Counted from the stretch's first letter, positions 3 to 57,293 are shown. The stretch is DNA of 64,000 nt from an uncultured Gammaproteobacteria bacterium (GCA_964609775.1 CAZSSJ010000002.1:19260-83259), one strand, 5' to 3'. Notes: generated by a model from the sequence alone, not told the origin. Program-made: numbers and translations.

Positions 3-395
3 GACGTTATCGAACATTTTACCGACCCGGTTTCGGAAATTACAAAAGTTTATCGCACCCTAAAAAAGGGCGGAGTTTTCGCTTTTTCCACCGTCGACCC
101 TGAGAGTCTAACGGCTAAAATTAGGGGGAGTAAGTGGCCCTGGTATATGGAAATGCACCGAGTCTTATTAAGCCGGCCGGTCATTGAACGCTATCTTCGA
201 CAGTCGGGATTTAAAACAGTCTTTTTTAGGTCACATTGGCGTTTTTTTTCGTTAGGTTATGCTGCCACCAGGTGGGAAACTATCAGTCCCACACTTGCTC
301 GAATTTTGACCAGCGCAGTTAAGATTATGCACCTACAGAAAGTCTTAGTGCCGTTTTATGCTAACGATCTCTACGACTGCTATGCGTTTAAGTAG
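3..395 (+). CDS. Class I SAM-dependent methyltransferase, C-terminal fragment (5' end outside window)
   Basis: Frame 3 is open from the window edge to TAG 393-395. The translation DVIEHFTDPVSEITKVYRTLKKGGVFAFSTVDP... is the typical region after motif II/III of Methyltransf_11-type enzymes (xEH..DP, LKxGG). Confidence 0.7.
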   Translation, partial: DVIEHFTDPVSEITKVYRTLKKGGVFAFSTVDPESLTAKIRGSKWPWYMEMHRVLLSRPVIERYLRQSGFKTVFFRSHWRFFSLGYAATRWETISPTLARILTSAVKIMHLQKVLVPFYANDLYDCYAFK

Positions 396-1947
396 CCACC
401 AGCCAAAGCCACTGTCTCTAATTATCCTGGTAACCGTTCTCCTTGCGGCCTTCTTCCTTCGCACCTGGCCGACTCTGAGTGACACCACCCATTTTTCCTT
501 TGATCAGGGCCTGGACATGATCATGGCCAAACTGTTGATCGTCGATCACCAGATCAACTTAATCAGTCGCCACAGTGGACTTCAGGGCGTCTTGATGGGC
601 CCCCTCTGGACTTATTTTCTGGCCACCCCTTTTGCCCTTTCAGGTGGTCACCCCTCCGGCAACGTCATCTTCCTGTCTGTTTTTAATCTGGTCACCTCTG
701 TTCTGGCAACTGTGCTGGTCGGCCGGAAATTCGGCTTGACTGCCGGAGTTGTTACCGGACTTTTTTTTCTGTTCTCACCCTCCTTCATCACCGGTTCTCA
801 AGTAGTCCTTAGTCCTTATCCTCTAATACCCTTATTTATTTTTTTCCCCCTACTTGCCCACGAAACCCTAGTTAACAAAAGCAGTCGTTTCGCCTGGCTT
901 CTCATGCTGCTCTTGGGACTATACTTTCAATTCGAAGTCGGCTTTGCCATTTTTGCCCTTCTCGCTTTTGTTGTCCTTTTTGTTTTTTTCCACTCGTGGT
1001 GGCTTTTTAAAAAGCGGTCATTCTGGGCAGGCTGTGGGCTTTTTGTCTTGACATTTTTGCCCCAGATCCTTTTTGACCTTCGCCACCAATTTCTGATAAC
1101 CAGCGGTTTGTTAGCCTACTTTACTGGCAGTAATACTAGTCTTTACCAGAAGTCAGCTCCACTCATCATTCGCCTCGCTCAGCGATTATATTCATTCTAT
1201 GAAGACGCGACCGCAATGGCATTTTTTGGCCATTGGTCGGTGAATATTGCTCTTCTTCTTCTGGTGGTTTCCGGCTGGATAGTCGCTCTAAAGCATGACG
1301 CAAAAACCCATCGGAAATTTTTGCAAATGATCCTTTTGACATTGGCGTCTTTTTTTATCGGTTTTACCCTTTATCCTGGTCCGATTTGGGGTTGGTATCG
1401 AATTGGCCTACCGGCAATCTACATCTTTCTTGTTTCCATACCAACTGGCGTCCTTTGGCAGAGAATGTATCGTCTTCGGCCGTTAATTCTGATCGTTCTA
1501 ATCGCACTATTTTTGACTGGCGTCAAACCCTGGACTCTCTGGCACCTATATAAAAATCCAGGTGTTGGCGGAGTGGGGACACTCAATAATCAAAAAAAAG
1601 TCATCGACTACGTTTATTCTCAGGCAGAGGGAAAGCCGTTCAACTATCTCGTCTATACCCCGCCGGTCTATGACTACATCTGGCAATATGACTTTTGGTG
1701 GTACGGAAGACAAAAATATGGCTATCTTCCGACAAATTGGCAAATGAGTGTGCCCCTATTGGGAATCGGGGAACAATCCAAACCTCCTGCCACCAAAGAA
1801 CCTTTCTTTCTCATTATTGAGCCAAATACCGACCACCCCGACGAATCCGTCAATTGGAAGAAGACTTTAAAACTAGAGCCAGCAGATTCAAAAGCTACTC
1901 TTCCCGGAGGAATTATCGTCGAAAGTCGGCAAGGCGACAATTTATGA
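382..1947 (+). CDS. Polytopic membrane protein, divergent ArnT/PMT_2-like GT-C candidate
   Basis: ORF 358-1947. ATG 382 (MRLSSHQPKPLSLIILVTVLLAAFFLR) gives a 14-nt overlap with the upstream stop. It has many hydrophobic segments. Its C-terminal soluble tail (FNYLVYTPPVYDYIWQYDFWWYG) resembles the tails of the GT39-like paralogs downstream. Confidence 0.45.
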   Translation: MRLSSHQPKPLSLIILVTVLLAAFFLRTWPTLSDTTHFSFDQGLDMIMAKLLIVDHQINLISRHSGLQGVLMGPLWTYFLATPFALSGGHPSGNVIFLSVFNLVTSVLATVLVGRKFGLTAGVVTGLFFLFSPSFITGSQVVLSPYPLIPLFIFFPLLAHETLVNKSSRFAWLLMLLLGLYFQFEVGFAIFALLAFVVLFVFFHSWWLFKKRSFWAGCGLFVLTFLPQILFDLRHQFLITSGLLAYFTGSNTSLYQKSAPLIIRLAQRLYSFYEDATAMAFFGHWSVNIALLLLVVSGWIVALKHDAKTHRKFLQMILLTLASFFIGFTLYPGPIWGWYRIGLPAIYIFLVSIPTGVLWQRMYRLRPLILIVLIALFLTGVKPWTLWHLYKNPGVGGVGTLNNQKKVIDYVYSQAEGKPFNYLVYTPPVYDYIWQYDFWWYGRQKYGYLPTNWQMSVPLLGIGEQSKPPATKEPFFLIIEPNTDHPDESVNWKKTLKLEPADSKATLPGGIIVESRQGDNL

Positions 1948-4010
1948 TCGGTGACTTCCTGCCACTGCAAACAAATCTTTTACCCTATTGGTTTTTTCCC
2001 TGGAACACTAATTCCTGGTCAGGCTTTACTCCCTTTATTTTCCACAAGGAACTATTAGCTATCGACGCTCTGCGCCAGATTTTTGTCTGGAAAGAATTTG
2101 CTTTTTCCCAAATCAGACTAGGTGGGTGGCCGCTCTGGAATCCCTACAGTTTTTCCGGTCAGCCGCTTTTGGCCAATTTCCAATCCTCGGTTTTCTATCC
2201 GTTGTCTTGGTTTTTTATGTTTCTGCCGCCCATGATTGCCTGGGCGGCTTATGTTTTTAGTCAGCCGCTCCTTTTAGTCACTTTTATGTTCTTCTGGATG
2301 CGACCAAAAGTGGGTGCCGTTGCCGCCCTTTTTGCCGCCCTCGCCCTTGCAACGGCCAGTTTTTTTGCCACCCGCTATTTCTGGGGAGTCTACGTTCATT
2401 CGCTGTTATGGATTCCTCTGGGGTTAGGCCTGATTGACCGCTACAAAGAAGCCAAAATCAAAACATCATCTTTCGTCGCCTCTTTTTCCCTGGTTTGTGT
2501 CTTAACGGTTCTGGGTGGTTATCCTCAGTTTGGCTTGTACGCCATTGCCCTTTTGGGAGCGTACTATTTGTATATTTTTGGCAAAAAGCGCCTGCTCCTC
2601 TTTCTCCTTTCCCTGATTTTGGCCTTGTTAATTTCCGCCGTCCAGTTAATCCCAACAGCCGAACTATACCGCTATTCGCTTCGTGAGGGAACTGCCTCAG
2701 CCCGGACCTTTAGCGATTCCCTCTTGTCTCCGAAATACCTTGCTACCATAGTTTACCCCGACATGTTTGGCAGTCCGGCAGTTAATGACTACACTGGAGG
2801 CAAAGACTACTCTGGTGTCAACGGCTATTTTGGCGTCGTCCCCTTTCTTCTGGCTTCGGGTGCTGCTATTTTCTTACGAAGGGACAGACAAGTTAGGTTT
2901 TGGATCGCCGTTGGAGCATTGGGGCTACTTCTTGCCTACGACAATCCTTTTGCTCGGCTACCTCAGGTGTTGCCCTTGCCCATCATAAGCAGCGGGAATG
3001 CGTGGCACAACCTTTTCTTTTTTCAGTTTGCCGGTGTCGTATTAGCCACAATTCTACTTACCAGGTTACCAAAGAGAGCCATTCTCATCTGTCTCCTGTT
3101 GACAACCTTCTTAGGCTTCTATTATTCACTGAAAGTGTCACCCTTCGGACAGACCAAATATTTTTATCCTCCCCACCCTCTTCTTTCTTGGCTAAGGCAA
3201 AATGCTGGCCTAGATCGGTTTTATGGTTATCGCAGTTCCCACTTTCTTTCTAATCTTTCCACCTACTATCGCATCTATAGTCCCGAGGGCTATGACAGTC
3301 TTTGGCCGTCTTGGTACGGAGAGTTACTTTCCTCCGCTGACAGAGGTAAAGTTCCTCCGGAAGTAAATCGGGCGGATGTCTCCGTGACTGATTGGGACAC
3401 TTCCTACCGGCGTAAATTGCTAAATCTTCTGGGGGTCAAATATTTTTTAGACAAATCTGATAAACCCGGCGGCGACCAAGGTCCAAACCTGGCCAAGTAC
3501 CCGGCCGGGCAATTTGTCTTAAGGAAACAATGGGGAGAAGTGTCCATCTATGAAAACAAAGAGGCCTTGCCGAGAGCTTTTTTGGCAGACGGCGTCATCT
3601 CTGCCCCAAAATCGGAAGTCATCGAGAAAATCTATTCTTTGCCCTCGCTTCGGACCATCATCTTGGATTCACCACCCGGCCTGGGGTCAAAAAAACTGAC
3701 CACCGGATCAGCGAGTATTAAAAAATATCTTCCCAATGAGGTAATCGTGACCACCAATTCCCCTGGTAATTCCCTCCTCTTTTTATCCGATACCTACTTC
3801 CCCGGTTGGGATGCTTTCGTAGACGGCCACAAAGCAAAAATCCTTCGGGCTGACTATGCCTTTCGGGCAGTCCCTGTTCCTCCCGGAAAAAATGAAGTAA
3901 GATTCATATATCAACCAAAATCATTTTTTCTTGGGATTTCTATGAGTTTATTAGGGAGCGCGATCTGGCTATGGCTGTTGTTAAAAAATTTTTTCAAGAA
4001 AACTGGCTAG
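1944..4010 (+). CDS. YfhO-like GT-C membrane glycosyltransferase (paralog 1)
   Basis: ATGA overlap with the upstream stop. Motifs: FFPWN, WPLWNPYSFSGQPLLANFQSSVFYPL, and C-terminal LSDTYFPGWDAFVDGHKAKILRADYAFRAVPVPPG. About 690 aa and polytopic. Confidence 0.6.
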   Translation: MIGDFLPLQTNLLPYWFFPWNTNSWSGFTPFIFHKELLAIDALRQIFVWKEFAFSQIRLGGWPLWNPYSFSGQPLLANFQSSVFYPLSWFFMFLPPMIAWAAYVFSQPLLLVTFMFFWMRPKVGAVAALFAALALATASFFATRYFWGVYVHSLLWIPLGLGLIDRYKEAKIKTSSFVASFSLVCVLTVLGGYPQFGLYAIALLGAYYLYIFGKKRLLLFLLSLILALLISAVQLIPTAELYRYSLREGTASARTFSDSLLSPKYLATIVYPDMFGSPAVNDYTGGKDYSGVNGYFGVVPFLLASGAAIFLRRDRQVRFWIAVGALGLLLAYDNPFARLPQVLPLPIISSGNAWHNLFFFQFAGVVLATILLTRLPKRAILICLLLTTFLGFYYSLKVSPFGQTKYFYPPHPLLSWLRQNAGLDRFYGYRSSHFLSNLSTYYRIYSPEGYDSLWPSWYGELLSSADRGKVPPEVNRADVSVTDWDTSYRRKLLNLLGVKYFLDKSDKPGGDQGPNLAKYPAGQFVLRKQWGEVSIYENKEALPRAFLADGVISAPKSEVIEKIYSLPSLRTIILDSPPGLGSKKLTTGSASIKKYLPNEVIVTTNSPGNSLLFLSDTYFPGWDAFVDGHKAKILRADYAFRAVPVPPGKNEVRFIYQPKSFFLGISMSLLGSAIWLWLLLKNFFKKTG

Positions 4011-6325
4011 TCATCTTTGCTCTGGGTGTCTCCAATCTTGTTTCTTTTTGGCAATTCTACCTTAAGGGTTTGTTACCCTTTCCCGGGGACCTTCTAGTTT
4101 CCTTTTTCTTTCCTTGGAACTCTGGAGGGTTTGTGGGCTTTGATTCCTGGACCACCCACAAGGAATACATCGCCTCCGACGCTCTCCGTGCCCTTTTCCC
4201 CTGGAAGGTCGAAGTCATCCGTCAATTCTTAAGCGGCAATTTTCCTTTGTGGAACCCCTTCAACTTTGCTGGTACACCGCTTCTGGCTGATTTCCAGTCC
4301 GGAGCCTTTTTTCCCACTAATCTTCTTTACGCCTTTCTGCCTCCTCTCACCGTCTGGATTCTCCAAGTGCTAGTTCTCTTGAGTCTGTTTGCCTTTTTTT
4401 CCTATCTGTTCCTGCGTGCCCTCAAACTCTCACCACTTGCCAGTGCTTTTGGAGCTGTTGTTTTGTCGAATTTACCCTATTTGGTCAACTGGCACGAGAT
4501 CCTCGTCGTGACGCAAAGTGCCCTCTTCTTGCCTCTGGATTTGTACCTACTTGAGAAATTTGCTCAAACAAAAAAAACTATTTATCTTTTTTTTCTGCCC
4601 CTTTTTTTGGCCTTCGCAATTTTTGCTGGCCATCCCCAGACAATCATTATGGTCTTCTTTCTCATCGGAAGTTATGCTCTTTTCCGCCGCTTGTCTTTGG
4701 GCAGAATTTTCCTAATTTTCGTAATCTCACTTCTTTTGGGTGCTGTCCAGTTGTTGCCGTCCTGGCAGTTTTATGAATTCTCGGCCCGGGAAGCAGGAGA
4801 CACGGCTAAACTTTTCCTTGACCACCTCTTCCCGTGGCGAAACGTAATAACCGCCCTAGCTCCGGATTTCTTTGGCAATCCGGTGACCGGAAACTTTTGG
4901 GGGTGGGATTATCACAACTCTCTTGCTTATATTGGTGTGACCGCTTTGTTCCTGGCCCTGTTTTCGTTCTTTTGGCAGTCCAGGAGAAGAGAGGTTGGCT
5001 TTTTTGCCCTGCTGGCACTTATTGGCTTGTTGCTGGCCACCTCTCCACTGGCCAACATTTTTCTCTTCTTTAAAATCCCGATTCTCTCCACCGGCATTGC
5101 CGCCAGGAATATTTTTTTCTGGCAGTTTTCTTTGGGAGTTCTCTCCGCTTTTGGTTTGGACTATCTCCTAAATAAGGTCCGACAAAGCAGGTCTCGGTGG
5201 CATTTTGCCCCCCTAATATTTCTTCTAGTTTTATATCTACTGCTTTGGGTTGTTGTCCTCACAAGCTCTTCCCCGGAGTTTCTTATAAGTCGCCATAATC
5301 TGATTCTCCCCACGGCCATCTTTATCCTGACAGCCATCCTGATTCTCGGCGTCATTGTCCAGCCAAAAATAGGAAAATATCTTCTCTTTGTGCTTTTAGC
5401 ATTGGCAATCTTTGAACAGGGGCGCTATTTTAATAAAATCGAACCCTTCGCTAGCCCCGCCTTTGTCTTTCCCGACCACCCGGTCCTGACTTTTTTGCAG
5501 GAAAATGCCGGAACCAACCGCTTTATCGGAGCAGGGACAGCCAAAATTGATAGCAACTTTGCCACCTACTACCGCATTTTTGACCCCCAGGGCTATGACC
5601 CACTCTATCTTCTTCGCTATGGCCAGCTGCTCGCGGCCTCAAAAAATGGCGGTAAAAAAGCGCCTGTCATCTCCCGGGCTGATGCGATGATCGCCAATTT
5701 GGACCGAAATGATGGCTTTAAAGACCGCTTACTCGATATTTTGGGAGTCAAATACGTCCTCGATAATGAAAATATGTCTGTCGCCAGAGACTGGGAACCG
5801 GGGACTCTTGAGACTGCAAACAACCGCCATCTGCTTGTTTGGCAGCAAGAGAACAAGTGGAAAATTTACGAGCGACAAACCGCCCTCCCCCGAACCTTTT
5901 TGGCCGGAAGCTATGAAGTTGCCTCCTCTGATGAGGCAATTTTGGCACGTCTCTTTGATCCAGACTTTGCTGCTCAAGACAAAATTATCTTGGAAAAAGA
6001 TCCCGGTTTTCCAATCACCAATCAAGGCTCTGCCGAGGCAGTAATCACTCATTATTCTCCCAATACCGTCACGATTCAGACCCGTTCCGACCACCCTCGG
6101 CTGCTTTTTCTTTCGGATAATTACTATCACGGTTGGCTAGCAACCCTTGACGGCCAAAAGGCGGAGATTTTTCGGGCTAACTACACTTTTCGCGCCGTTG
6201 CCGCCCCTTCCGGATCGCACGTGGTGGAATTTAGATATAGTCCGGAGTCATTTCGCCTTGGACTAGTTGTCAGCGTTCTGGGTTTGCTGCTATGGCTAAA
6301 ATTTTTGCGACCAACAAGAAGCTAA
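3971..6325 (+). CDS. YfhO-like GT-C membrane glycosyltransferase (paralog 2)
   Basis: 784-aa ORF. Motifs: FPGDLLVSFFFPWNSGGF, FPLWNPFNFAGTPLLADFQSGAFFP, and C-terminal LSDNYYHGWLATLDGQKAEIFRANYTFRAV. Overlaps the upstream gene by 40 nt. Confidence 0.6.
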   Translation: MAVVKKFFQENWLVIFALGVSNLVSFWQFYLKGLLPFPGDLLVSFFFPWNSGGFVGFDSWTTHKEYIASDALRALFPWKVEVIRQFLSGNFPLWNPFNFAGTPLLADFQSGAFFPTNLLYAFLPPLTVWILQVLVLLSLFAFFSYLFLRALKLSPLASAFGAVVLSNLPYLVNWHEILVVTQSALFLPLDLYLLEKFAQTKKTIYLFFLPLFLAFAIFAGHPQTIIMVFFLIGSYALFRRLSLGRIFLIFVISLLLGAVQLLPSWQFYEFSAREAGDTAKLFLDHLFPWRNVITALAPDFFGNPVTGNFWGWDYHNSLAYIGVTALFLALFSFFWQSRRREVGFFALLALIGLLLATSPLANIFLFFKIPILSTGIAARNIFFWQFSLGVLSAFGLDYLLNKVRQSRSRWHFAPLIFLLVLYLLLWVVVLTSSSPEFLISRHNLILPTAIFILTAILILGVIVQPKIGKYLLFVLLALAIFEQGRYFNKIEPFASPAFVFPDHPVLTFLQENAGTNRFIGAGTAKIDSNFATYYRIFDPQGYDPLYLLRYGQLLAASKNGGKKAPVISRADAMIANLDRNDGFKDRLLDILGVKYVLDNENMSVARDWEPGTLETANNRHLLVWQQENKWKIYERQTALPRTFLAGSYEVASSDEAILARLFDPDFAAQDKIILEKDPGFPITNQGSAEAVITHYSPNTVTIQTRSDHPRLLFLSDNYYHGWLATLDGQKAEIFRANYTFRAVAAPSGSHVVEFRYSPESFRLGLVVSVLGLLLWLKFLRPTRS

Positions 6326-8616
6326 TTCTGGTTTTCCTGTGCCTGTTAGCGGCCAATGTTGCAATTTTCTGGCAGTTCTATTTTCGTGGACTTTTGCCCT
6401 TTCCCGGCGATCTACTGGTGTCATTTTTCTTTCCCTGGAACTCTGGCGGCTTTGCCAATTTTGATCAGTGGACCACTCACAAAGAAGTCATCGCCGCCGA
6501 TGTCATTCGGCAAATGTATCCTTGGAAAGCCCTCCTAGTCAACGCCGTAAAGAACGGCACCTGGCCTCTGTGGAACCCCTACAATTTTTCTGGAACTCCG
6601 CTTCTGGCTAATCTTCAGTCATCCGTTTTCTTTCCGGCCAATGTTGTTTTTCTCTTTTTGCCCCGGCTTGTTTCCTGGATCAGTCTCGTCATTTTTCTCC
6701 CCCTCATTTTTTCCATTTTTTGCTATCTCTTTTTACGCTCTTTAAACATTAGCCGGCTCGCCAGTCTCCTCGGAGCAATCATCCTGTCAAATATTTCTTA
6801 TTTGCTCGTCTGGTCAGAGCAATTGGTCTTTATTCAAAGTGTTCTTTTCCTGCCACTCTCCCTGTTGCTAATTAATTATTATTCAGTTTCAAAAAAACCA
6901 CTTCTTCTCCTCCTTTTGCCCCTAACCTTATCTTTTGCCGTTTTTGGCGGTCACATCCAAACAGTTGTCTATGTTTGTGTTGTGGTAACTTTATATGCCC
7001 TTTTCCGCCGCCTGCCAATCAAATACCTTTTTATCATCGCTCTTTCGACCATAGGCCTGTCATCACTACAACTTCTTCCTTCTCTCGAACTGTATCTCTA
7101 TTCAGCTCGCGAGGGAAATGCCTCTGCCCAGTTGTTTCTTGAATCTGTCCTTCCGATCCAAAATCTCGCCACCATTCTTGCTCCGGATTTCTTCGGCAAC
7201 CCCGCCACCGGCAATTTTTTCGGCTCTGACTATGGCAATAATCAGGTCTATTTCGGAGTATTGGCAGCATTTTTTTCCGTCGTTGGACTTTATTACGGAC
7301 TGAAGGGAAAAAAGAGTTTGACGCTTTTTTTTGCTCTCGTTGGCCTAGGAGGTCTGGTGTTTTCTCTAGATCCTTTTGCTCGCTTGTTTCTTGTTTTTAA
7401 AATCCCGGTTCTTTCTTCAGCGGTCGCTGCCCGAGGAATTTTCATTTTTCAATTTTGTTTTGCCGTCGTGGCCGCTTTGGGAATTGATCAATTTCTGGCA
7501 AACACAAGGAAACGAGCAATAATTACTATTTTTTTCCTCTTTCTCGGCTTCTACCTGCTCCTATATTTTTCCACCAAGTTAATTCCCAATCACGCCACTA
7601 TTGCTCAAAAGAACCTAGTTCTGCCCTTGCTGGTCCTACTTTCCACTGGTGTGACCGCCTTTCTCTCCCGTTTTCGAAGGCAAGCAGCCGTTGTTCTCAT
7701 TCTAATTGCCACTTTGGAATATGCTTATTTTTTCAACAAATTTGCCCCCTTCGCCAGGAGAGAGTTTGTCTTTCCTGGGCATCCGGTTTTCAATTTTTTG
7801 ACGACGCGGGCGGAAGTTGACCGGTTTTACGGCTTCGGGACAGCCTATGTTGACAATAATTTTGCCTCCTACTACCGCGTCTTTTCCGCCGAGGGCTATG
7901 ACTCGCTATATATCAAGCGCTATGGTGAACTTCTCGCCTCCACCAAAAACGGCCAACTTCCCCCAGATGTTCCCCGTTCTGACGCCCTCTTTACAAGTCA
8001 AGACAACGTCTTCCGTAACCGGCTCTTTGATCTTTTAGGCGTCAAGTATATCCTTGATAAAAATGATAATCCCCAGTCAAATTGGGAACCGGAGAATGAC
8101 AAATTCCCCGAGGAGCGCTATAAGCTTGTCTGGCAGAAACTGAAATGGAAAGCCTATGAGAGAAAAACCGCCTTGCCTCGGGTATTTCTCGCCGATTCAT
8201 TCCTCGTTACCAATTCCGACCAGCTGATATTGTCAAAAATGTTTGACCCCCGATTCGATCTGGCAGCCACCGTGATCCTTGAAAAGAACCCCCCTTGGGA
8301 ACTTGCTCCGGGAGGGAAAAGTGAGGCAAAAATGAGCAACTACCGGGAAAACATGGTTGTCATTGAGACACAAGCTGACAAACCCAAAGCACTTTTCTTA
8401 TCAGATACCTACTACCCCGGTTGGAAAGCTACTCTTGATGGAAAACCAATAGATATCTATCGAGCCGATTATATTTTTAGATCCGTCATGGTTCCGTCTG
8501 GAAAACATACTGTCATTTTTAACTACGATCCTGAAACTTTTAAATTTGGGCTTGCCCTTTCAGGATTATCAGCCGCTCTTCTCTTGATAACCATCTTGCG
8601 AAAATCGCATCCATGA
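6292..8616 (+). CDS. YfhO-like GT-C membrane glycosyltransferase (paralog 3)
   Basis: 774-aa ORF. Its N-terminus is nearly identical to paralog 2 (FPGDLLVSFFFPWNSGGF). Also has WPLWNPYNFSGTPLLANLQSSVFFP and C-terminal LSDTYYPGWKATLDGKPIDIYRADYIFRSV. Confidence 0.6.
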   Translation: MAKIFATNKKLILVFLCLLAANVAIFWQFYFRGLLPFPGDLLVSFFFPWNSGGFANFDQWTTHKEVIAADVIRQMYPWKALLVNAVKNGTWPLWNPYNFSGTPLLANLQSSVFFPANVVFLFLPRLVSWISLVIFLPLIFSIFCYLFLRSLNISRLASLLGAIILSNISYLLVWSEQLVFIQSVLFLPLSLLLINYYSVSKKPLLLLLLPLTLSFAVFGGHIQTVVYVCVVVTLYALFRRLPIKYLFIIALSTIGLSSLQLLPSLELYLYSAREGNASAQLFLESVLPIQNLATILAPDFFGNPATGNFFGSDYGNNQVYFGVLAAFFSVVGLYYGLKGKKSLTLFFALVGLGGLVFSLDPFARLFLVFKIPVLSSAVAARGIFIFQFCFAVVAALGIDQFLANTRKRAIITIFFLFLGFYLLLYFSTKLIPNHATIAQKNLVLPLLVLLSTGVTAFLSRFRRQAAVVLILIATLEYAYFFNKFAPFARREFVFPGHPVFNFLTTRAEVDRFYGFGTAYVDNNFASYYRVFSAEGYDSLYIKRYGELLASTKNGQLPPDVPRSDALFTSQDNVFRNRLFDLLGVKYILDKNDNPQSNWEPENDKFPEERYKLVWQKLKWKAYERKTALPRVFLADSFLVTNSDQLILSKMFDPRFDLAATVILEKNPPWELAPGGKSEAKMSNYRENMVVIETQADKPKALFLSDTYYPGWKATLDGKPIDIYRADYIFRSVMVPSGKHTVIFNYDPETFKFGLALSGLSAALLLITILRKSHP

Positions 8617-10103
8617 CCAAAAATACTTTCTTTTTTCTCATTATCCTCCTCCTCCTGCTCATCCCCATTGTCGTCCCTCTTGTCCAGCCCGGTTTCTTTG
8701 TCTCTGATGATGGCGACTGGATGGTTATCAGGCTATCCGCTTTCCACGAAACCCTCAAAACCGGCCAGTTCCCGGTTCGCTTTTTAGAAAGGCTCAATCA
8801 TGGCTACGGCTACCCGGTGACTGACTTTCTTTATCCTCTACCTTTCTATTTGGGAGAAATAATCCATCTCCTGGGCTTCAATTTTGTCGATTCAGTAAAA
8901 ATTCTTTTTGGCATGAGTTTTCTTCTCGGGGCTTTTTCCATGTTTTTCTACGCCAAAGATAAGTGGGGGAATCAGATAGGAATTATTGCTGCCGTTTTTT
9001 ACACTTATTTTCCCTACCGAATTTTTGACGTCTACAAACGTGGCTCGCTGGGAGAATCAGTCGCTTTTGTCTTTATCCCTCTGGTCTTTCTTTTTTATGA
9101 CCGCTTAGTCACCACCAAAAATCTAATATATCTTTCGTTTGGCGCTCTAGCCACAGCAGCCATGATAACCTCTCACAATACCGTTGCTTTTCTTACGTTA
9201 CTTGTCCTCATCGCATATATAACTACTAATCTTTTCTCAAAGACCGAAAAAAAATGGCTAATACTGTCCTCTATGTCTTATCTTGGTCTCTCTTTGACTC
9301 TTTCCGCCTTTTTTGTTATTCCGGCCCTTGTTGACCTCCAGTTCACTAAGACAAGGTTAATCACAATTTCTGATCCAACACGGTTCTTTCTTTCGTTAGA
9401 CAATCTTTTAAGTCTAGCCGGCATCCCAATAATGTTGATCACCGGTGCAGCCATACACCTAATTCGTAAGGGATCACGCGGGGTGGTATTTTGGACAGCT
9501 ATATCAATAGTCTCAATCCTGATGGCCATGTCCGTTTCTGATGTCCTTTGGGCAAATCTATCGTCACTTTCTAAACTAGTCCAATTTCCTTGGCGCTTTC
9601 TTTCGATTACGGCTCTAGCCGGAGCAATCTTAACCGGATTTTTGTTAAGCCACTACAGAATCAAGATATTATTCCCCCTCCTCATAATCTTGCCTGTCAT
9701 TTTCTCAGGAATATTGACACTAAAAATAGACAGAACTTTTCACCCAGAAAGCTATTACACTACCAACGACGACAGCACTACTGTCAAGAACGAATATATG
9801 CCCATTTGGGTAAAAAAAGACCCCACCAACCTTCCTAAGGAAAAAATTGCCTGGATAGACTCAAATCTTGTTCGAGTCAACACTGTATACTTCCCCGGTT
9901 GGGCAGCCTATGTCAATGGGCAAGAAAGGGAAATAATCTACCAGGACGATGGCCTAATCAAATTCGCTGCCCGACCAGACGACAAAATTGAACTTCGCTT
10001 TGAAGAAACTCCACTGCGGGCGGAAGCTAACCTTGTCACCATTTTGGGAATCTTCCTGGCCTTGGCTTTAATACTTTTGCCCCCCAAAAGTCAAATCACA
10101 TGA
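8613..10103 (+). CDS. PTPS-related-type polytopic membrane protein (GT-C candidate), paralog 1
   Basis: ATGA overlap. The N-terminal loop SDDGDWMVIRLSAFHETLKTGQFPVRFLERLNHGYGYPVTDFLYPLPFYLGE matches my recollection of the PF10131 family. C-terminal VYFPGWAAYVNGQE. Confidence 0.5.
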   Translation: MTKNTFFFLIILLLLLIPIVVPLVQPGFFVSDDGDWMVIRLSAFHETLKTGQFPVRFLERLNHGYGYPVTDFLYPLPFYLGEIIHLLGFNFVDSVKILFGMSFLLGAFSMFFYAKDKWGNQIGIIAAVFYTYFPYRIFDVYKRGSLGESVAFVFIPLVFLFYDRLVTTKNLIYLSFGALATAAMITSHNTVAFLTLLVLIAYITTNLFSKTEKKWLILSSMSYLGLSLTLSAFFVIPALVDLQFTKTRLITISDPTRFFLSLDNLLSLAGIPIMLITGAAIHLIRKGSRGVVFWTAISIVSILMAMSVSDVLWANLSSLSKLVQFPWRFLSITALAGAILTGFLLSHYRIKILFPLLIILPVIFSGILTLKIDRTFHPESYYTTNDDSTTVKNEYMPIWVKKDPTNLPKEKIAWIDSNLVRVNTVYFPGWAAYVNGQEREIIYQDDGLIKFAARPDDKIELRFEETPLRAEANLVTILGIFLALALILLPPKSQIT

Positions 10104-11749
10104 CAGGGAAAATTGTCATGCTAATTCTTGCCTCAATCATTCTGCTAGGATTTCTTGTCCGCCTATACAGACTTGGCAATATTCCTAACGGCTTTTTCTT
10201 TGACGAAGCCACCATTTCCTACCAGGCATATAGTTTACTCCAGACGGGTAAAGATACCTGGGGAACTGACTTTCCTTTATTGTCATTTAGAGATTATGGA
10301 GAGTACATTTTGCCAATCGGCGTTTATGGTCAAATTCCTAGTCTATTAATTGGAGGGCTAAATGTCTTATCTGCTCGGTTTCCCCATGCTATTTTGGGAA
10401 TACTTAGTGTCCCATTAGTATATTTTTTAGCCAAAGAACTGTTTAAGAACACTAAAATTTCTCTTTTATCTTCATTTTTACTAACAATATCACCTCTTTC
10501 AATTGGTTGGACACGTTTTGTGTTCGAAGGTAATTTCGGGACAGTCCTTTTCTTGAGTGGGACACTTCTTTTCGCCAGGTCTTTAAAAAAGCCCCGACTT
10601 CTACCCTGGTCAATCCTTTCTTTTGGTCTGTCAGCCCTTTCCTATCACATATTTTTAATCCTCACTCCACTTTACTTTTGCCTGCTCTCTCTCCTGAATC
10701 GAAAATCCCCAAGTCTGATTGGACACATAAGACCCATAACTCTCATCATCGTTGTTTTCTTCCTCGCCTGGATCCTGGCTGCTATCGCCTCAGGCGCTGG
10801 TCGGCAGCGCTTTTCCCAAGCCTCAACTCTTCTTACACCTCAAAAAATTGACAACCTCAACCATCAAATTGGCTACTGTTCAAACCAAATGTCTCTCACC
10901 CTGTGCAAAGTATTTCTAAATAAGCCAGTCTTAGCAGCGACCAGCTACCTGGAAAACTACCTCGCCCACTTTTCGCCGGTCTTTTTAGGATTTGACGGGA
11001 CATTCCTTCGCCAAAATGTCTTGCCCAAGTCGGGAATACTTTTACCTGTGGAAATGGTCGGCTTTTTCGTGGGATTATTTTTTCTTGTCAGATCACCTAC
11101 TTCTTTAGCGAGCCGGATTTTATTACCGATAATCCTGATCTATCCCGTGGCTAATAGCTTCACTGGTCTGGGAGAAATCAGCCGGATTGCCTTTGCCAGC
11201 CCCTTTCTCTCGCTTGTCGCCGCCTATGGTTTGGTGCGAATCACCCAAACTTTCCGGGTGTTTAAGCCCCCGCTTTTTCTGGCTATTCTTTACAGCGTTG
11301 TCAGTTTCCTCATCACTTATTTTCTAATCTTCCCCAAAACTAACGCCTACTACACCAATTTTGGCTACGACAAAGTATTTTCTTGGGTGCGGGCCAATCA
11401 GTCTAAATATGACCGGATTTTTATCTCCCGCAACTATGCCGGTTCCGTTCCCTACATTTCTGCCCAATTTTTCCTGCCCATTGATCCGCAGATGTTTCAA
11501 AGGGGTCAAGTGGAGAGAAAAAAATCGCCTGAGGGTTATTATCAGATTGAATCCGTTGACCAGAAATTTCGATTTTTTCAAAATTTACACTCTGAAGCTC
11601 TTAAGCCAAATGATTTTGTTGTCGCCACCCCTGAGGACATTCAATCTTATGCGCTAACGCCGAAATTTACTATAATTGATCCCACGGGGAGAAAACTGCT
11701 CCTTGGCGTTGAAGCAAATGAAATTTTGGCAAAAACTGCTGTCCCTTAG
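10100..11749 (+). CDS. PMT_2/GT39-like (ArnT-like) GT-C glycosyltransferase
   Basis: ATGA overlap. N-terminal helix, then LYRLGNIPNGFFFDEATISYQAYSLLQTGKDTWG (loop-1 Asp-Glu motif). Polytopic core with a soluble C-terminal domain. Confidence 0.6.
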   Translation: MTGKIVMLILASIILLGFLVRLYRLGNIPNGFFFDEATISYQAYSLLQTGKDTWGTDFPLLSFRDYGEYILPIGVYGQIPSLLIGGLNVLSARFPHAILGILSVPLVYFLAKELFKNTKISLLSSFLLTISPLSIGWTRFVFEGNFGTVLFLSGTLLFARSLKKPRLLPWSILSFGLSALSYHIFLILTPLYFCLLSLLNRKSPSLIGHIRPITLIIVVFFLAWILAAIASGAGRQRFSQASTLLTPQKIDNLNHQIGYCSNQMSLTLCKVFLNKPVLAATSYLENYLAHFSPVFLGFDGTFLRQNVLPKSGILLPVEMVGFFVGLFFLVRSPTSLASRILLPIILIYPVANSFTGLGEISRIAFASPFLSLVAAYGLVRITQTFRVFKPPLFLAILYSVVSFLITYFLIFPKTNAYYTNFGYDKVFSWVRANQSKYDRIFISRNYAGSVPYISAQFFLPIDPQMFQRGQVERKKSPEGYYQIESVDQKFRFFQNLHSEALKPNDFVVATPEDIQSYALTPKFTIIDPTGRKLLLGVEANEILAKTAVP

Positions 11750-13454
11750 CCCTCTTGTTGTTCTCTTTATCGCCTCATTTTGGTCCTGGAAGCCGCTTCT
11801 GGCCTCCGGCTTTTTTACAATTCATGACAACCAGCAGATCGCCCGGCTGTTTGAATTAAATAAAGCTCTTCTTGCTGGTCAGTTTCCCGTTCGCTGGGTG
11901 CCGGATCTGGGTTTTAGCTTTGGCTACCCGCTCTTTAATTTCTATCCGCCCCTGATTTATTATCTCGGCGAACTCTTTCATCTGTTGCTCGGGACAGGAT
12001 TCATTGACTCAATTAAGATAGTTTGGTTCGTCGCCCTGGTGGGATCGGGGATTGCCATGTACTTCTTGGCGAAAGAGTACTTTGGCAGAGCAGGAGGACT
12101 CGTTGCCGCGATGTTTTATGTTTACGCTCCCTACCACGCCGTCGACGCCTACGTCCGCGGGTCTTTGGCCGAACTTTTTTCTTTTGTTTGGCTCCCCCTC
12201 ATCCTGCTGGCATTGTATAAAATTGTGACTTTGCCAATAAGCTACGATCGTTGGATTTTGGCAAGCGGTATTCTCCTTGGCCTGCTGATGATCACCCACA
12301 ACCTCATTTTTCTCCCTTTTGTGGGAATATCAGCCCTTTGGTATTTTGCTCTAGTATTAATTTATCGCCGTAACGAACCGGTCCGTTATACTTTATACTT
12401 TATACTTTATACAGCCCTTTGTTTCGCTCTATCAGCCTTTTTCTGGCTGCCGGCGCTGGCTGAAAAACAATTCACCCTCGTTGACCAACTCCTGATTAAG
12501 AATCTGGCTTCCTACCAAATCCATTTTGTCTGCCCGCAGCAGTTATGGAACAGTCCCTGGGGTTTTGGCGGTTCGACTGCAGGTTGTCTTGATGGCCTGT
12601 CATTCAAACTCGGCAAGCTGCACATCTTGGCAGCCATAGCCTCTTTCGGGGCTGTCGCCTACCTCTGGCTTAAAGCTCACAAAAAGCTAGCGTTAGTAAT
12701 TCTTATATCTTATTTCTTATTTTTTATATCCCTGTTCATGACTACTGACTATTCAAAAATTTTGTGGGACAATTTTCCCCCTCTTTGGTACCTTCAGTTC
12801 CCCTGGCGTTTTCTGGAATTTGCCACCCTTTTTGCCGCGCTAATTGCGGGGAGTATCTTGGCGTTGGTCAAAAATATCCCCCTTAAAATATTGGTTACCA
12901 TAACGCTAATTTCGGCAATTCTCTACATCGAAGCTAAAAACTTCGTTCCCCAAACCCACCTCTTCACTGACACAGACGACCAAGAAACTTCTGATGAGCA
13001 AATTAAGTGGGTCATCAGTTCAACTTCGTTTGAGTATCTCCCAAAAGAAGTTGCCACTAGAGTCACAGACCTCGGGACCGTTTGGGTCGATATTGATCGA
13101 TCAAAAATTCCCCCCCGAAAGTATCAAGTTCTCTCCGGAAACTTGCAAAGCACCGAGGAAATATTTCTTCCCCATCGTTTCAAACTCACTGGCCAATTTA
13201 CAAACGAGACGACAATTCAAATTAATGTGGCAAACTTTCCCGGGTGGGAAGTGTGGCTCGATGGTTCCGAAGCACGCATCAGGGATAACAATGCCTATAA
13301 ATTGATCACTATCAATGTCCCCCCAGGAAACCATACACTAACTGGGCAATTTACCAATACCTGGCCGAGGTCCCTAGGTAACACCATTTCCATCATTGCA
13401 CTCATCGCGTTAGCCCTTTACTTTGGAAAATATGGAATTAGAAGAAGTTCTTAA
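11718..13454 (+). CDS. PTPS-related-type polytopic membrane protein (GT-C candidate), paralog 2
   Basis: Start chosen at ATG 11718 (MKFWQKLLSLS). Motifs: HDNQQIARLFELNKALLAGQFPVRWVPDLGFSFGYPLFNFYPPLIYYLGE and C-terminal ANFPGWEVWLDGSE. Confidence 0.5.
   Translation: MKFWQKLLSLSPLVVLFIASFWSWKPLLASGFFTIHDNQQIARLFELNKALLAGQFPVRWVPDLGFSFGYPLFNFYPPLIYYLGELFHLLLGTGFIDSIKIVWFVALVGSGIAMYFLAKEYFGRAGGLVAAMFYVYAPYHAVDAYVRGSLAELFSFVWLPLILLALYKIVTLPISYDRWILASGILLGLLMITHNLIFLPFVGISALWYFALVLIYRRNEPVRYTLYFILYTALCFALSAFFWLPALAEKQFTLVDQLLIKNLASYQIHFVCPQQLWNSPWGFGGSTAGCLDGLSFKLGKLHILAAIASFGAVAYLWLKAHKKLALVILISYFLFFISLFMTTDYSKILWDNFPPLWYLQFPWRFLEFATLFAALIAGSILALVKNIPLKILVTITLISAILYIEAKNFVPQTHLFTDTDDQETSDEQIKWVISSTSFEYLPKEVATRVTDLGTVWVDIDRSKIPPRKYQVLSGNLQSTEEIFLPHRFKLTGQFTNETTIQINVANFPGWEVWLDGSEARIRDNNAYKLITINVPPGNHTLTGQFTNTWPRSLGNTISIIALIALALYFGKYGIRRSS
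12386..12412 (+). repeat. Heptanucleotide tandem repeat (TTATACT) x3 plus a 6-nt partial copy, inside a CDS
   Basis: Read directly: ttatact ttatact ttatact ttatac. It encodes YTLYFILYT. The unit length is not a multiple of 3. Confidence 0.9.
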
Positions 13455-14877
13455 TCGGACCGTAAAAAGCGTCATCGCGCTGACGAGCCGCAGCGTTGTC
13501 TTGCTGCTGATTCAGGCCGTGGCTTATTCTCTTCTCATCGCTTTTCTGGGAGCCCAGGAGATCGGCATTTTTATTGTCGTCTCGGCAATTTTGCGCGTCT
13601 TCACTTTCTTTACCGATTTGGGATTGGGCGCCGCCCTCATCCAGAAAAAAGAAAATTTAGACCAGGATGACCTGCGCTCTGCCTTTACTATTCAAACCGC
13701 ACTGGTCCTCATAATTATCGCCGTTGCCTTTGCGCTCACCCCGCTTGTCAGATCCTATGCCAATTTGGACCCGGCCGGAGTTTTTCTTTACCAGGTTCTC
13801 GCCTTCACTTTGCTCATTTCTTCCTTAAAAATGATCCCCTCGATTCTTCTGGAGAGGCAGCTGCGCTTTGAAAAACAAATCATTCCCCAAATCGTCGAGG
13901 CATTGGTATTCAACAGCTTGGTGGTCATTCTGGCGGCCAAACATTTTGGTGTCGCCTCCTATTCATGGGCCATTCTAGTTTCCTCTCTCGCCGGATTGCC
14001 CGTCTACTACCTAATTTCGCCGTGGAGAATTTCCCTGGGATTGTCGAAAGATGTGGCCAAACACCTCATTCGCTATGGCCTCCCTTTCCAAGGCAAGAGT
14101 GTCCTGGCGATAATAAAAGATGATCTTCTGGTCTTCTTTCTTTCCGGAATTGTTGGCACCGCCGGAATTGGCTACTGGGGGACGGCGCAAAAATTTGCCT
14201 ATTATCCCTTCCGTCTGCTCGTCGACACTCTCACTAAAGTCACTTTTCCCGCTTATTCGCGAATTCAACTGGAAAAAGAAGCCTTAAGAATTGGTATAGA
14301 AAAATCGCTACTTGCCGTCAGCCTCCTGCTCTTTCCGGTGCTCACCTTAATCGCCGTGCTGGCCCACAATCTTGTTTATTTAATCCCCAAATATCAAAAG
14401 TGGGAGCCGTCACTGCCTTCTCTCTATTTCCTCTGTGCGGGGGCGGCCGTCTCTGCCTTGTCAAACATTTTGGTGAACGCCCTTGACGCTACCGGACACG
14501 TCAAAACAACTCTGGGGTTGATGGTAATGTGGATAGTATTAACCTGGGTTGGAACTTTGGTCCTCGTAGCCAAGTTTGGTTTTACCGGAATAGCTATGGC
14601 CTCGTTCGTGGTCGCTCTCACCATTATTCTTACCATCTACTTGGTTAAACGGGTTGTCAATTTTCGCTTTTTGGGAAGTATCTTCAAGCCATTTTTGGGT
14701 TCCCTACTTATGGGGCTTTCGGTGTTTGCCCTCATTCAAGTTCTGCCAATCTCCTTCCCGGCTCTTCTTCTTGAAGGTATTGCTGGTGCTATAATTTATT
14801 TGGGTGCGATGTATCTGCTCGCCCGCAAGGAACTATTAGCGGATCTGAGAATCGTCATCAAAACTTTCAGAAAATGA
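13432..14877 (+). CDS. wzx: MOP-superfamily oligosaccharide/lipid-linked sugar flippase (Wzx-like)
   Basis: About 480 aa with 12 or more hydrophobic segments. Motifs typical of polysaccharide biosynthesis proteins (GLGAALIQ, YGLPFQG, VTFPAYSRIQ). ATG 13432; an alternative TTG lies at 13423. Confidence 0.65.
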   Translation: MELEEVLNRTVKSVIALTSRSVVLLLIQAVAYSLLIAFLGAQEIGIFIVVSAILRVFTFFTDLGLGAALIQKKENLDQDDLRSAFTIQTALVLIIIAVAFALTPLVRSYANLDPAGVFLYQVLAFTLLISSLKMIPSILLERQLRFEKQIIPQIVEALVFNSLVVILAAKHFGVASYSWAILVSSLAGLPVYYLISPWRISLGLSKDVAKHLIRYGLPFQGKSVLAIIKDDLLVFFLSGIVGTAGIGYWGTAQKFAYYPFRLLVDTLTKVTFPAYSRIQLEKEALRIGIEKSLLAVSLLLFPVLTLIAVLAHNLVYLIPKYQKWEPSLPSLYFLCAGAAVSALSNILVNALDATGHVKTTLGLMVMWIVLTWVGTLVLVAKFGFTGIAMASFVVALTIILTIYLVKRVVNFRFLGSIFKPFLGSLLMGLSVFALIQVLPISFPALLLEGIAGAIIYLGAMYLLARKELLADLRIVIKTFRK

Positions 14878-15767
14878 CAACAATTTCCTTCGCAATTGCG
14901 ACTCGTAATGAGGCTGATGACATTAAAGATTGCCTCGAATCGATCAAATGGGCTGATGAAATCGTCATTTTTGACGAAAAATCAATCGACAAAACGGTTG
15001 AGGTCGCCAAAAAATATACTTCTAAAATTTTCCTCATTGACCACGATCCGATGTTTCACCGCACTAAGCAAAAGGCAATCGATAAATGTGCCAGTGATTG
15101 GATTTTTCAAATTGACGCTGACGAAAGAGTCAGCCCCGACCTAAAAGATGAAATTCTCCAGACAATTAGTGGCGTCTCGTCGCTTCCCGGTTACCAACTC
15201 CCCCGCAAAAGCAGGATTTTTGGCAAATGGATGGAACACACCGGTTGGTACCCCGACTATCAGGTCAAGCTTTTCCAAAAGGGCAAGGGTCACTATCCCT
15301 GTCAGTCAGTTCACGAAATGATAACTATCGACGGTCAAATGGGAACTTTAACAAACGATCTTCTGCACGAACACTATTCCACTCTTGACTGGTATTTGAA
15401 TCGCCGGTTCGAATACACCAAAAACGACGCCGAAAACATCATCGCCCGCGGGGAAAAAATTGTTTGGTCAGATGCGATTAAATTCCCCGCCGACGAGTTC
15501 TTTAAACGATTTTTCTTTTGGCAAGGCTACAAAGACGGTCTGCATGGCTTAGTCCTCTCACTTTTGATGGCCTTTGACCGCTTAATCGTTTTTGCCCGCC
15601 TCTGGGAGCACCAAAAATTTTGGCAACATGACAGTGCTGATTTTCGAGGGGAAGTCATACACAAGACAAAAAAGGTGGCGCATGACTGGCACCATTGGCT
15701 GTCGCAAACTGCCACCAAACCCCACGAGAAAATCTTGCATAAGCTGAAAGCAAAATTTAATTTCTAA
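14874..15767 (+). CDS. GT2 glycosyltransferase (WaaE/KdtX-like subfamily)
   Basis: ATGA overlap. Motifs: ISFAIATRNEADDIKDCLESIKWADEIVIFDEKSIDKT and QIDADERVS (DxD). Paralogous to the genes at 18375 and 39213. Confidence 0.75.
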   Translation: MTTISFAIATRNEADDIKDCLESIKWADEIVIFDEKSIDKTVEVAKKYTSKIFLIDHDPMFHRTKQKAIDKCASDWIFQIDADERVSPDLKDEILQTISGVSSLPGYQLPRKSRIFGKWMEHTGWYPDYQVKLFQKGKGHYPCQSVHEMITIDGQMGTLTNDLLHEHYSTLDWYLNRRFEYTKNDAENIIARGEKIVWSDAIKFPADEFFKRFFFWQGYKDGLHGLVLSLLMAFDRLIVFARLWEHQKFWQHDSADFRGEVIHKTKKVAHDWHHWLSQTATKPHEKILHKLKAKFNF

Positions 15768-15770
15768 TCT

Positions 15771-16700
15771 ATGGAAAAAACTGAACTCTCAATTGCCACC
15801 ATTCTCCATAACGAGGAGGCGAACGTTGTCGAACTCCACCGGAGATTAAGCACGGTCCTAAAAACCCTCAATAAAACCCATGAAATTATTTTGGTAGATG
15901 ATGGCAGCACTGACAGGACACTTGATAAACTCAAGACGCTTCGCCAAAAGGACAGATCCATCAAAATCATCTCTCTCTCGCGAAACTTCGGTATCGAGGC
16001 CGCCGCCACTGCCGCCCTAGATCACACCAGCGGAGAAATGGTTGTTCTCATGGACGGCGACCTTCAGGACGCCCCGGAATTCATTCCCTCACTCCTGAAT
16101 AAAATTGGACAGGGCTACGACGTCGTCTACGCCCAGCACCCAAAGAGAAAAGACACCCTCGTGAAGCAAGCACTTTTTGGTAGCTTTTATCGGCTGATGG
16201 ACAAACTGGCCGACTATAAATTTCCCGTTGACGTGGGTCATTTTTCCGTGATGAGACGGCCGGTTGTCGACGTGTTGACGCAAATGACGGAAAGAAATCG
16301 GTTTATTGCCGGACTTCGGGCTTGGGTGGGCTTCAAACAAACAGGAATCCTGTATGAAAAACAGGCCAGGTTTGCCGGCAAACCACCACAAACATTTAAA
16401 AAGTTGCTCAAAATGGGCTTTGATGCTTTGTTTTCTTTCTCGTACATCCCACTTCGAGTTGCAACATTAATGGGTCTATTGGTCGCTATTGGAACAATTA
16501 TTGTGATCATTAACGTTTTGTATCAAAAATTCGTCGTCAACACTGCTATTATCGGATGGGCTGGACCCATGCTCTCAATATTGATCATCGGAGGTGTGCA
16601 ACTTTTCATTCTCGGCATAATCGGGGAATATTTAGCCAGAATCTATGATGAAGTCAAAAGGCGTCCCTACTATATCGTCTCTGAGAAAATTGGTTTCTAA
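15771..16700 (+). CDS. GT2 polyprenyl-phosphate sugar synthase (GtrB/ArnC/DPM1-like)
   Basis: Motifs: ILVDDGSTDRT and LMDGDLQDAPEFIP. Two C-terminal TM helices (LRVATLMGLLVAIGTIIVIINVLY; LSILIIGGVQLFILGIIGEYL) are typical of GtrB/ArnC architecture. Confidence 0.75.
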   Translation: MEKTELSIATILHNEEANVVELHRRLSTVLKTLNKTHEIILVDDGSTDRTLDKLKTLRQKDRSIKIISLSRNFGIEAAATAALDHTSGEMVVLMDGDLQDAPEFIPSLLNKIGQGYDVVYAQHPKRKDTLVKQALFGSFYRLMDKLADYKFPVDVGHFSVMRRPVVDVLTQMTERNRFIAGLRAWVGFKQTGILYEKQARFAGKPPQTFKKLLKMGFDALFSFSYIPLRVATLMGLLVAIGTIIVIINVLYQKFVVNTAIIGWAGPMLSILIIGGVQLFILGIIGEYLARIYDEVKRRPYYIVSEKIGF

Positions 16701-57284: not shown

Positions 57285-57293
57285 ACTTTTGCT

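Follow-up and report, generated by a model that had tools for sequence, protein, structure and literature searches.

Four anciently diverged YfhO-family paralogs in a probable surface-glycan locus of a bacterium assigned to the Microgenomates

In Firmicutes, proteins of the YfhO family, which are membrane glycosyltransferases (GTs) of the GT-C class, decorate teichoic acids (PMC5836110). The CsbB-GtcA-YfhO systems of B. subtilis, S. aureus and L. monocytogenes (Lmo1079) attach N-acetylglucosamine to teichoic acid, and the B. subtilis YfhO protein consists of 13 transmembrane (TM) helices, a large outer domain and a final TM helix (PMC5836110). YfhO-domain GT-Cs are also present in the streptococcal PgfS/PgfE/PgfM1/PgfM2 and GtrB-PgtC2 systems, where PgtC2, PgfM1 and PgfM2 glycosylate proteins and PgfM1 and PgfM2 are two paralogs of one operon (PMC12041528). 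Three-component systems of a GT-A enzyme, a flippase and a GT-C enzyme are established (PMC8035078). The mycobacterial enzymes AftA-D, EmbA-C, MptA/B and PimE represent a setting, the assembly of arabinogalactan and lipoarabinomannan, in which many GT-Cs each add one outer linkage from polyprenyl-phosphate sugars. The GacI-J-K-L system, which adds side chains to streptococcal rhamnopolysaccharide and was reportedly described by Rush et al. in 2017, is said to unite a GT2 lipid-sugar synthase, a flippase of the Wzx family and a GT-C with a polymer exported by an ATP-binding cassette (ABC) transporter. The present analysis concerns a 64,000-nucleotide (nt) stretch of DNA (CAZSSJ010000002.1:19260-83259), referred to below at its full length as the window, in which four YfhO-family genes, Y1 to Y4, were found. 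With a probability of roughly 70%, these encode functional GT-Cs of ancient divergence from three YfhO subfamilies that differ in structure, which act in non-redundant assembly steps in a member of the Microgenomates.

Nearly all coding sequence of the window lies on the plus strand, including the four YfhO genes. Y1 (1944-4010, 688 residues), Y2 (3971-6325, 784 residues) and Y3 (6292-8616, 774 residues) follow each other directly, with overlaps of 40 nt between Y1 and Y2 and 34 nt between Y2 and Y3, and Y4 (20347-22557, 736 residues) lies apart from them. A first-pass annotation had listed four YfhO-like genes, three in tandem with overlapping ends and one at 20347, and all four were found where it had placed them. 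The gene upstream runs 4 nt into Y1, whose ATG lies at 1944, and public gene calls on the same contig use this start too. By BLASTP, Y2 and Y3 were 47% identical over 753 residues (E = 0), Y1 was 34-39% identical to Y2 and Y3 (E 1e-48 to 1e-66), and Y4 was 30-33% identical to Y1-Y3 (E 1e-30 to 1e-99). The homology of the four paralogs is far above chance. Y3 was 100% identical to UY21_C0001G0069 of the Microgenomates group bacterium GW2011_GWA1_48_10, Y2 corresponds to UY21_C0001G0070 and Y1 to UY21_C0001G0071; judged by these matches the source genome is that of a member of the Microgenomates, within the Candidate Phyla Radiation (CPR, Patescibacteria). The host is described as an ultra-small groundwater bacterium. 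A search of the accessible literature library on YfhO or GT-C proteins in CPR/Patescibacteria found nothing relevant.

The four proteins all scored above the gathering cut-off (28.5 bits) of the Pfam YfhO profile PF09586, with 67.3 bits for Y1, 71.0 for Y2 (E 9e-20), 95.0 for Y3 and 79.0 for Y4 (E 3.6e-22), and the YfhO/GT-C placement given in the first-pass annotation is borne out by this profile search. PF09586 is also precomputed on nearly all of the listed homologs, and NCBI gives close relatives the name 'YfhO family protein'. A sequence search against solved structures gave no match for the YfhO paralogs. The GT-C transmembrane fold was found, the nearest solved folds being those of AftD and AftA at 9-13% identity, and the hetero-dimeric GT-Cs Pmt1-Pmt2 (6p2r) and EmbA-EmbB (7bvf) were also among the structural neighbours. 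The modelled Y3 protein has the YfhO architecture, with 13 TM helices, a beta-rich ectodomain at residues 485-747 and a C-terminal helix, TM14, and Y2 aligns with Y3 from end to end. These two canonical proteins and the CsbB-GtcA-YfhO systems have the domain and the architecture in common, and a GT2 lipid-sugar synthase also adjoins a YfhO gene here (at 22554, next to Y4) or lies in the same string of genes (at 15771). Compared with those systems, the window proteins score modestly (67-95 bits) against the Firmicute-based profile, the gene is present four times and not once, no GtrA/GtcA flippase or teichoic-acid genes are found in the window, and the host belongs to the CPR. Y1 and Y4 also depart from the YfhO architecture, Y1 being without TM1 and two inner helices and Y4 without the last helix, TM14.

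The conserved residues of the family were largely retained. Across 241 homologs, 39 residues were conserved at 95% or more, and Y1-Y4 keep 37 to 39 of them (37 in Y1, 38 in Y4), including D70, D299, D537, D705, K483, R511 and R630. D70, in the first outer loop (EL1), was invariant in 240 of the 241 homologs and is present in all four paralogs. An 18-residue string, FPGDLLVSFFFPWNSGGF, is the same in the Y2 and Y3 proteins, in agreement with the earlier remark on their alike N-termini. The DNA coding for it differs at several third codon positions between Y2 and Y3, and the motif is the consensus across the wider clade. Gene conversion or recent duplication as the origin of the identity was rejected on these grounds, and FPGDLLVSFFFPWNSGGF is regarded as a conserved functional motif kept by purifying selection. 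A second motif, WNPY.F.G.PLLA.(F/L)QS, had been described as common to all the paralogs; this was mostly confirmed, except that Y2 has WNPF and Y4 has PLLG.

In GT-C structures, TM1 ahead of EL1 is part of the conserved N-terminal module. TM1 precedes EL1 in Y2, Y3 and Y4, and is absent from Y1 alone. All intact Y1-clade proteins listed (14 public sequences and the window copy) begin straight in the first outer loop, with M..LPLxTNLxPYWFFPWN. An in-frame stop was found 0-7 codons upstream of the Y1-type start in six of seven loci, and the 41 codons upstream of Y1 in the window are hydrophilic; a hidden upstream TM1 or an alternative start was discarded accordingly. Two further helices, equivalent to TM11-12 of Y3, are absent from the window Y1 and its closest relative, and since this deletion is even-numbered the topology is kept. 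In the PGD motif, which follows closely on TM1, all members of the Y1 clade have Asn in place of the Asp (D40). Asn at this position is no proof of an inactive Y1, because it is shared by 32 of the 226 non-Y1 homologs. The residues switched and fixed in the Y1 clade, G39T, D40N, W174R/H, E176F and H221Y, are grouped in EL1 and TM2-7.

Without TM1, a GT-C has to bring the roughly 95 residues of EL1 to the outer face although no anchor or signal comes before them. One rather unlikely proposal is that the Y1 clade represents a natural GT-C without TM1, which would work only as a hetero-oligomer with the downstream canonical YfhO protein, the tandem paralogs then being subunits of one complex. An equally doubtful variant holds that the Y1-type protein is not an independent enzyme at all, but an obligate catalytic or scaffolding partner of that protein, which would make up for the missing TM1. 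The universal loss of TM1 in the clade, the concentration of the clade-specific switches in EL1 and TM2-7, and the presence of the Pmt1-Pmt2 and EmbA-EmbB hetero-dimers among the structural neighbours are all consistent with a partner role. In seven of seven loci the gene next after the Y1-type gene is a canonical YfhO gene on the same strand, usually overlapping it, but tandem duplication alone would give the same adjacency. Furthermore, Y1 retains 37 of the 39 conserved residues, and the Y1 model alone gave a high-confidence fold in silico. The loss of helices from Y1 and Y4 could also suggest pseudogenes decaying after duplication. This is extremely improbable, as both truncations are clade-wide and kept across many genomes, both open reading frames are intact with 37-38 of the 39 residues, the orthologs are 50-72% identical and the Y1 model is highly confident; pseudogene status was rejected on the basis of this conservation.

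Y4 forms a separate deep clade, and the C-terminal anchor helix TM14 is absent in every member of it. Its gene is the middle part of a module, preceded on the plus strand by a GT4 glycosyltransferase (19274-20350) and followed by a soluble GT2 (22554-23237, plus strand) whose start overlaps the Y4 stop. The GT2 resembles AglJ, dolichyl-phosphate-hexose and PpgS synthases and is a candidate polyprenyl-phosphate-sugar synthase paired with Y4. The same module was seen in two Levybacteria loci, L019 and L020 (L numbers denote the related contigs compared), as GT4, a YfhO gene without TM14, GT2 and GT2, with a GT2 again after the Y4-type gene. Each of these loci holds three YfhO genes within 14 kb, so multi-copy YfhO recurs in the few Microgenomates-group loci examined. 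The earlier statement that genomes normally carry one or two copies does not fit this lineage, and S. mutans has three YfhO-domain proteins (PMC12041528). A run of eight A residues is located at 20352-20359, 3 nt past the Y4 start codon (ATGAGAAAAAAAAT). It was the only exception in a search of the YfhO genes for phase-variable repeats, and it is too short to call phase-variable, though it is placed where slippage would turn Y4 off.

The age of the duplications was assessed from synonymous differences, tree topology and synteny. The proportion of synonymous differences (pS, Nei-Gojobori) was 0.75-0.8 for every paralog pair and 0.68-0.83 per region and pair, at or near the Jukes-Cantor saturation limit of 0.75. 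In a neighbor-joining tree (distance-based, 200 bootstraps) the Y1 clade, the Y2 clade and the Y2/Y3 group, within which the Y2 clade is nested, each received 100% support. Single canonical copies of two-copy genomes grouped with Y3-like sequences inside the Y2/Y3 group. At the corresponding slot, three tandem YfhO genes are present in the window (Y1, Y2, Y3), in L007 and in L018, a Y1-type gene and one canonical copy in L010/L011, L013/L014 and L017, and one canonical copy in L008; L012 has at least two, with the contig ending there. The slot thus holds one, two or three YfhO genes. The genes of L007, about 52% identical, are one-to-one orthologs of Y1, Y2 and Y3 in the same order, each being more similar to the corresponding window gene than to the genes beside it. 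Y2 orthologs are present in L007 and L012, and the order Y1-Y2-Y3 is found again in two further species, with two genes or one in the slot of other relatives. The surrounding order is also conserved: a methyltransferase, a GT-C-like protein of about 520 residues, the YfhO genes, a PTPS_related protein, two membrane proteins, a Wzx flippase and two GT2s. The most economical history would be a stepwise one, in which an old pair of a Y1-type and a canonical copy came first, and a later yet still old duplication of the canonical copy gave Y2 and Y3.

The identity of Y2 and Y3 was found to vary along the protein. It was 67% in EL1, 58% in the second large outer loop, 50% in the C-terminal ectodomain and 28-47% in the transmembrane segments. 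Because synonymous sites were saturated, dN/dS per domain could not be estimated, and nonsynonymous divergence (dN) and identity per region are given instead. dN reached its minimum in EL1 (0.26) and its maximum in the helices (0.5-0.75). Divergence is for this reason not centred outside the membrane, contrary to what the first-pass annotation had expected; the outer parts are the most conserved between the paralogs. Relative to orthologs of similar overall distance, the membrane core was equally diverged (47% for Y2-Y3 against 46-47% for orthologs), whereas the outer parts were rather more diverged in the paralogs, with 67% against 76-77% in EL1 and 58% against 69-81% in the second loop. This extra outer divergence is compatible with a limited change of specificity. 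Only three positions show a fixed difference that sets the Y2 clade apart from its Y3-like relatives.

These results bear on a second explanation, namely that a lineage-specific tandem amplification with fast diversification of donor or acceptor specificity took place for the decoration of teichoic acids under phage or host pressure. The variable number of copies in the slot, the additional divergence of the paralogs in EL1 and the second loop, the known role of Firmicutes YfhO proteins in teichoic-acid decoration and a slipped-strand frameshift in a neighbouring GT-C gene (see below), by which the locus varies within populations, would all fit such a process. It is nevertheless quite improbable. 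Synonymous sites are saturated at 30-47% protein identity, the Y1 and Y2 clades are old and have strong support, conservation is in absolute terms highest in the outer regions, and just the three sites mentioned separate the Y2 clade from its Y3-like relatives. An identical Y3 protein was present on at least 24 contigs from many samples, and apart from the A8 run at the Y4 start the YfhO genes contain no repeat or phase-variable tract. In particular, the recent tandem amplification proposed earlier is contradicted by the saturated pS, the low identities, the trios of L007 and L018 and the full bootstrap support of the Y1 and Y2 clades. Non-redundant steps are preferred over an arms-race expansion because the orthogroups keep their order, the conserved residues are intact and many other GT-Cs are present.

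The three tandem genes are a small part of a huge gene cluster, which probably builds the sugar coat of the cell. In the window about 21 GT-C-like proteins were counted between 358 and 47593, nearly all on one strand and with overlapping ends, which is an exceptional density. They comprise the four YfhO proteins, six related PMT_2 proteins (starting at 10100, 23183, 24867, 26810, 31249 and 32907), three PTPS_related proteins, a GT87-like and a PIG-V-like protein, and several with no match in Pfam. Another five proteins of the PMT_2/MptA_B type and one unannotated protein of 468 residues are encoded in the 10 kb that precede the window (L015, 1-10000), which brings the locus to at least 26 GT-C-like membrane proteins over more than 75 kb. 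The window also contains seven mutually related GT2s and an eighth at 47590-48354, about nine GT4s, an ABC-2/Wzt exporter, methyltransferases, an acyltransferase and a PIG-L deacetylase.

Downstream of the trio on the plus strand, a Wzx/MOP-family flippase (13432-14877; Polysacc_synt_3, E 6e-47) is kept behind the YfhO genes in relatives and is the candidate flippase for lipid-linked sugars. It is followed on the same strand by a GT2 (14874-15767, PF00535) and by a GT2 with C-terminal TM helices (15771-16700, TM segments at residues 220-264), a PgfS/ArnC/GtrB-like candidate polyprenyl-phosphate-sugar synthase that would make the donor. Its NCBIfam matches were PgfS (E 5.6e-74, full length) and ArnC (E 3e-44), both under the equivalog cut-offs. 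A GT2 at 35326-36075 is AglJ/PpgS-like, resembling dolichyl-phosphate-hexose and PpgS synthases. YfhO genes and GT2s are therefore linked twice in the window, Y4 adjoining the GT2 at 22554-23237 and the PgfS/ArnC-like GT2 being co-directional with Y1-Y3. In the proposed mechanism, the GT2s at 15771-16700, 22554-23237 and 35326-36075 would load sugars on polyprenyl phosphate at the cytoplasmic face, and the probably Wzx-type flippase would turn the lipid-linked sugars outward. Each YfhO paralog would then, facing outward, move a sugar from its lipid donor to a different position or acceptor in an extracytoplasmic glycan, a lipoglycan or a surface glycoprotein. That the four paralogs catalyse distinct, non-redundant extracytoplasmic glycan or glycoprotein steps is the most likely prediction from these sequences.

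As acceptor, a lipoglycan or a polysaccharide of the wall agrees with the exporters and with the fold, which is like that of AftD and AftA. The likeness to mycobacterial arabinan assembly, where AftD and AftA are the closest solved folds, extends to an MptA_B-family gene just upstream of the window and the GT87-like gene within it. The likeness is in logic only, as there is no sequence orthology (9-13% identity) and no genes for decaprenyl-phospho-arabinose were identified. In the GacI-J-K-L system the GT-C, GacL, is of the PMT_2 type and not a YfhO protein, and it is a single GT-C compared with dozens here. Teichoic acid, the acceptor named in the first-pass annotation, is the least supported option, given that profile scans of the window found no teichoic-acid synthesis family and that the YfhO family also O-glycosylates proteins.

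Protein O-glycosylation is a serious alternative, because the streptococcal enzymes PgtC2, PgfM1 and PgfM2 add sugars to Ser/Thr-rich regions of proteins. By this explanation the paralogs would be protein O-glycosyltransferases acting on such regions of surface or membrane proteins. The streptococcal operons with two YfhO-domain paralogs and a PgfS/GtrB-type GT2 resemble the present locus, among NCBIfam profiles the GT2 at 15771-16700 matches PgfS best, and the only NCBIfam matches of Y1-Y3 were to PgfM1 and PgfM2 (NF047589 and NF047590). These latter matches, however, covered only about 70 C-terminal residues and scored 19.5-41.6 bits against equivalog cut-offs of 1400-1500, and the PgfS match was below its cut-off of 500. 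No Ser/Thr-rich substrate gene, adhesin gene or PgfE-type epimerase was seen in the window, and the locus is far larger than the Pgf and PgtC2 systems and contains export genes. The Wzx flippase, the ABC-2/Wzt exporter and the approximately nine GT4s are typical of polysaccharide pathways, and the best structural neighbours, AftD and AftA, build arabinan. O-glycosylation is thus considered possible but unlikely as the common function of the paralogs.

Several points weigh against the assignment of four functional enzymes with separate steps. Transferase activity of the CPR YfhO proteins is a prediction and the acceptors are candidates only. Y1, as read from its sequence, is without TM1, and it could be inactive if the PGD Asp is catalytic; the catalytic residues of the YfhO family are not established (PMC5836110). 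The operon structure was deduced solely from gene overlaps, a promoter and terminator scan having given no usable operon boundaries. Branching within the Y2/Y3 group is poorly resolved in the distance-based tree. Finally, no match to the GtrA/GtcA flippase family (PF04138) was found among the scanned window proteins, a Wzx-type flippase being present instead. The partner gene is often unlinked in Firmicutes, and the absence of GtrA from the window is for this reason weak evidence.

The gene upstream of Y1 (382-1947, plus strand) encodes a polytopic GT-C-like membrane protein of 521 residues with about ten hydrophobic segments and a weak PMT_2 match below the cut-off. L007, L010, L012 and L018, but not L013, have a gene of similar size (519-602 residues) whose end coincides with the Y1-type start or falls shortly before it. 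Downstream, all on the plus strand, are a GT-C-like PTPS_related membrane protein (8613-10103; PF10131, E 2e-11), present after the YfhO genes in every related locus reaching that far, a PMT_2/PMT (ArnT-like) GT-C (10100-11749), grouped with the other PMT_2 proteins by paralog clustering, and a PTPS_related-like GT-C-type membrane protein of 578 residues (11718-13454), a paralog of the 8613 and 37536 genes. The last of these genes contains, 3 kb past the trio, a TTATACT heptanucleotide repeat of 3.9 copies (12386-12412). In another sample's assembly of the same organism (L002, 16095-16108) one 7-nt unit fewer causes a frameshift and splits the gene into open reading frames of 256 and 238 residues. 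The difference resembles on/off switching of a surface-glycan enzyme by strand slippage, and it was the sole population-level polymorphism found, in a non-YfhO gene. An octanucleotide repeat, ATTGCATT, of 3.5 copies (31620-31647) in the PMT_2 gene at 31249-32910 is a potential frameshift switch, and was unchanged in the three other assemblies checked.

Further from the trio, an ABC-2 permease, an ATPase with a weak Wzt C-terminal match below the cut-off and an adjoining methyltransferase were found at 56472-59520. With its many GT4s, the region from 43 to 62 kb looks like an ABC-transporter-dependent polysaccharide pathway, possibly with a methyl mark at the chain end. An enolase-superfamily (MR_MLE) gene at 48342-49349 lies amid the glycosyltransferases and may modify sugar acids. 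The first 62 kb have a single minus-strand gene of notable length (34475-35122); it encodes a 215-residue protein with a PaaX central/Cas2-like domain, is kept in other assemblies and may be a regulator within the glycan locus.

Altogether, the observation made in the first-pass annotation was confirmed, its family assignment was supported, and its evolutionary and functional reading was partly supported. Current understanding is not overturned, since the family and the three-component logic were already known. Y2 and Y3 are further members of a known family; what is new are the subfamilies without TM1 and without TM14 and the multi-GT-C setting. YfhO enzymes have so far been studied only in Firmicutes, and singly, whereas here a CPR bacterium carries four intact and structurally distinct YfhO paralogs. 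With the clade that has no TM1, nature itself tests which parts of the GT-C fold can be dispensed with, and the Y1-(Y2)-Y3 series, with one, two or three copies depending on the species, offers a clean system for the evolution of GT-C specificity. The CPR envelope is essentially uncharacterised, and the lifestyle of these bacteria is thought to depend on cell-cell contact. The group is known for small genomes, and this locus points to a heavy investment in outer glycan chemistry.

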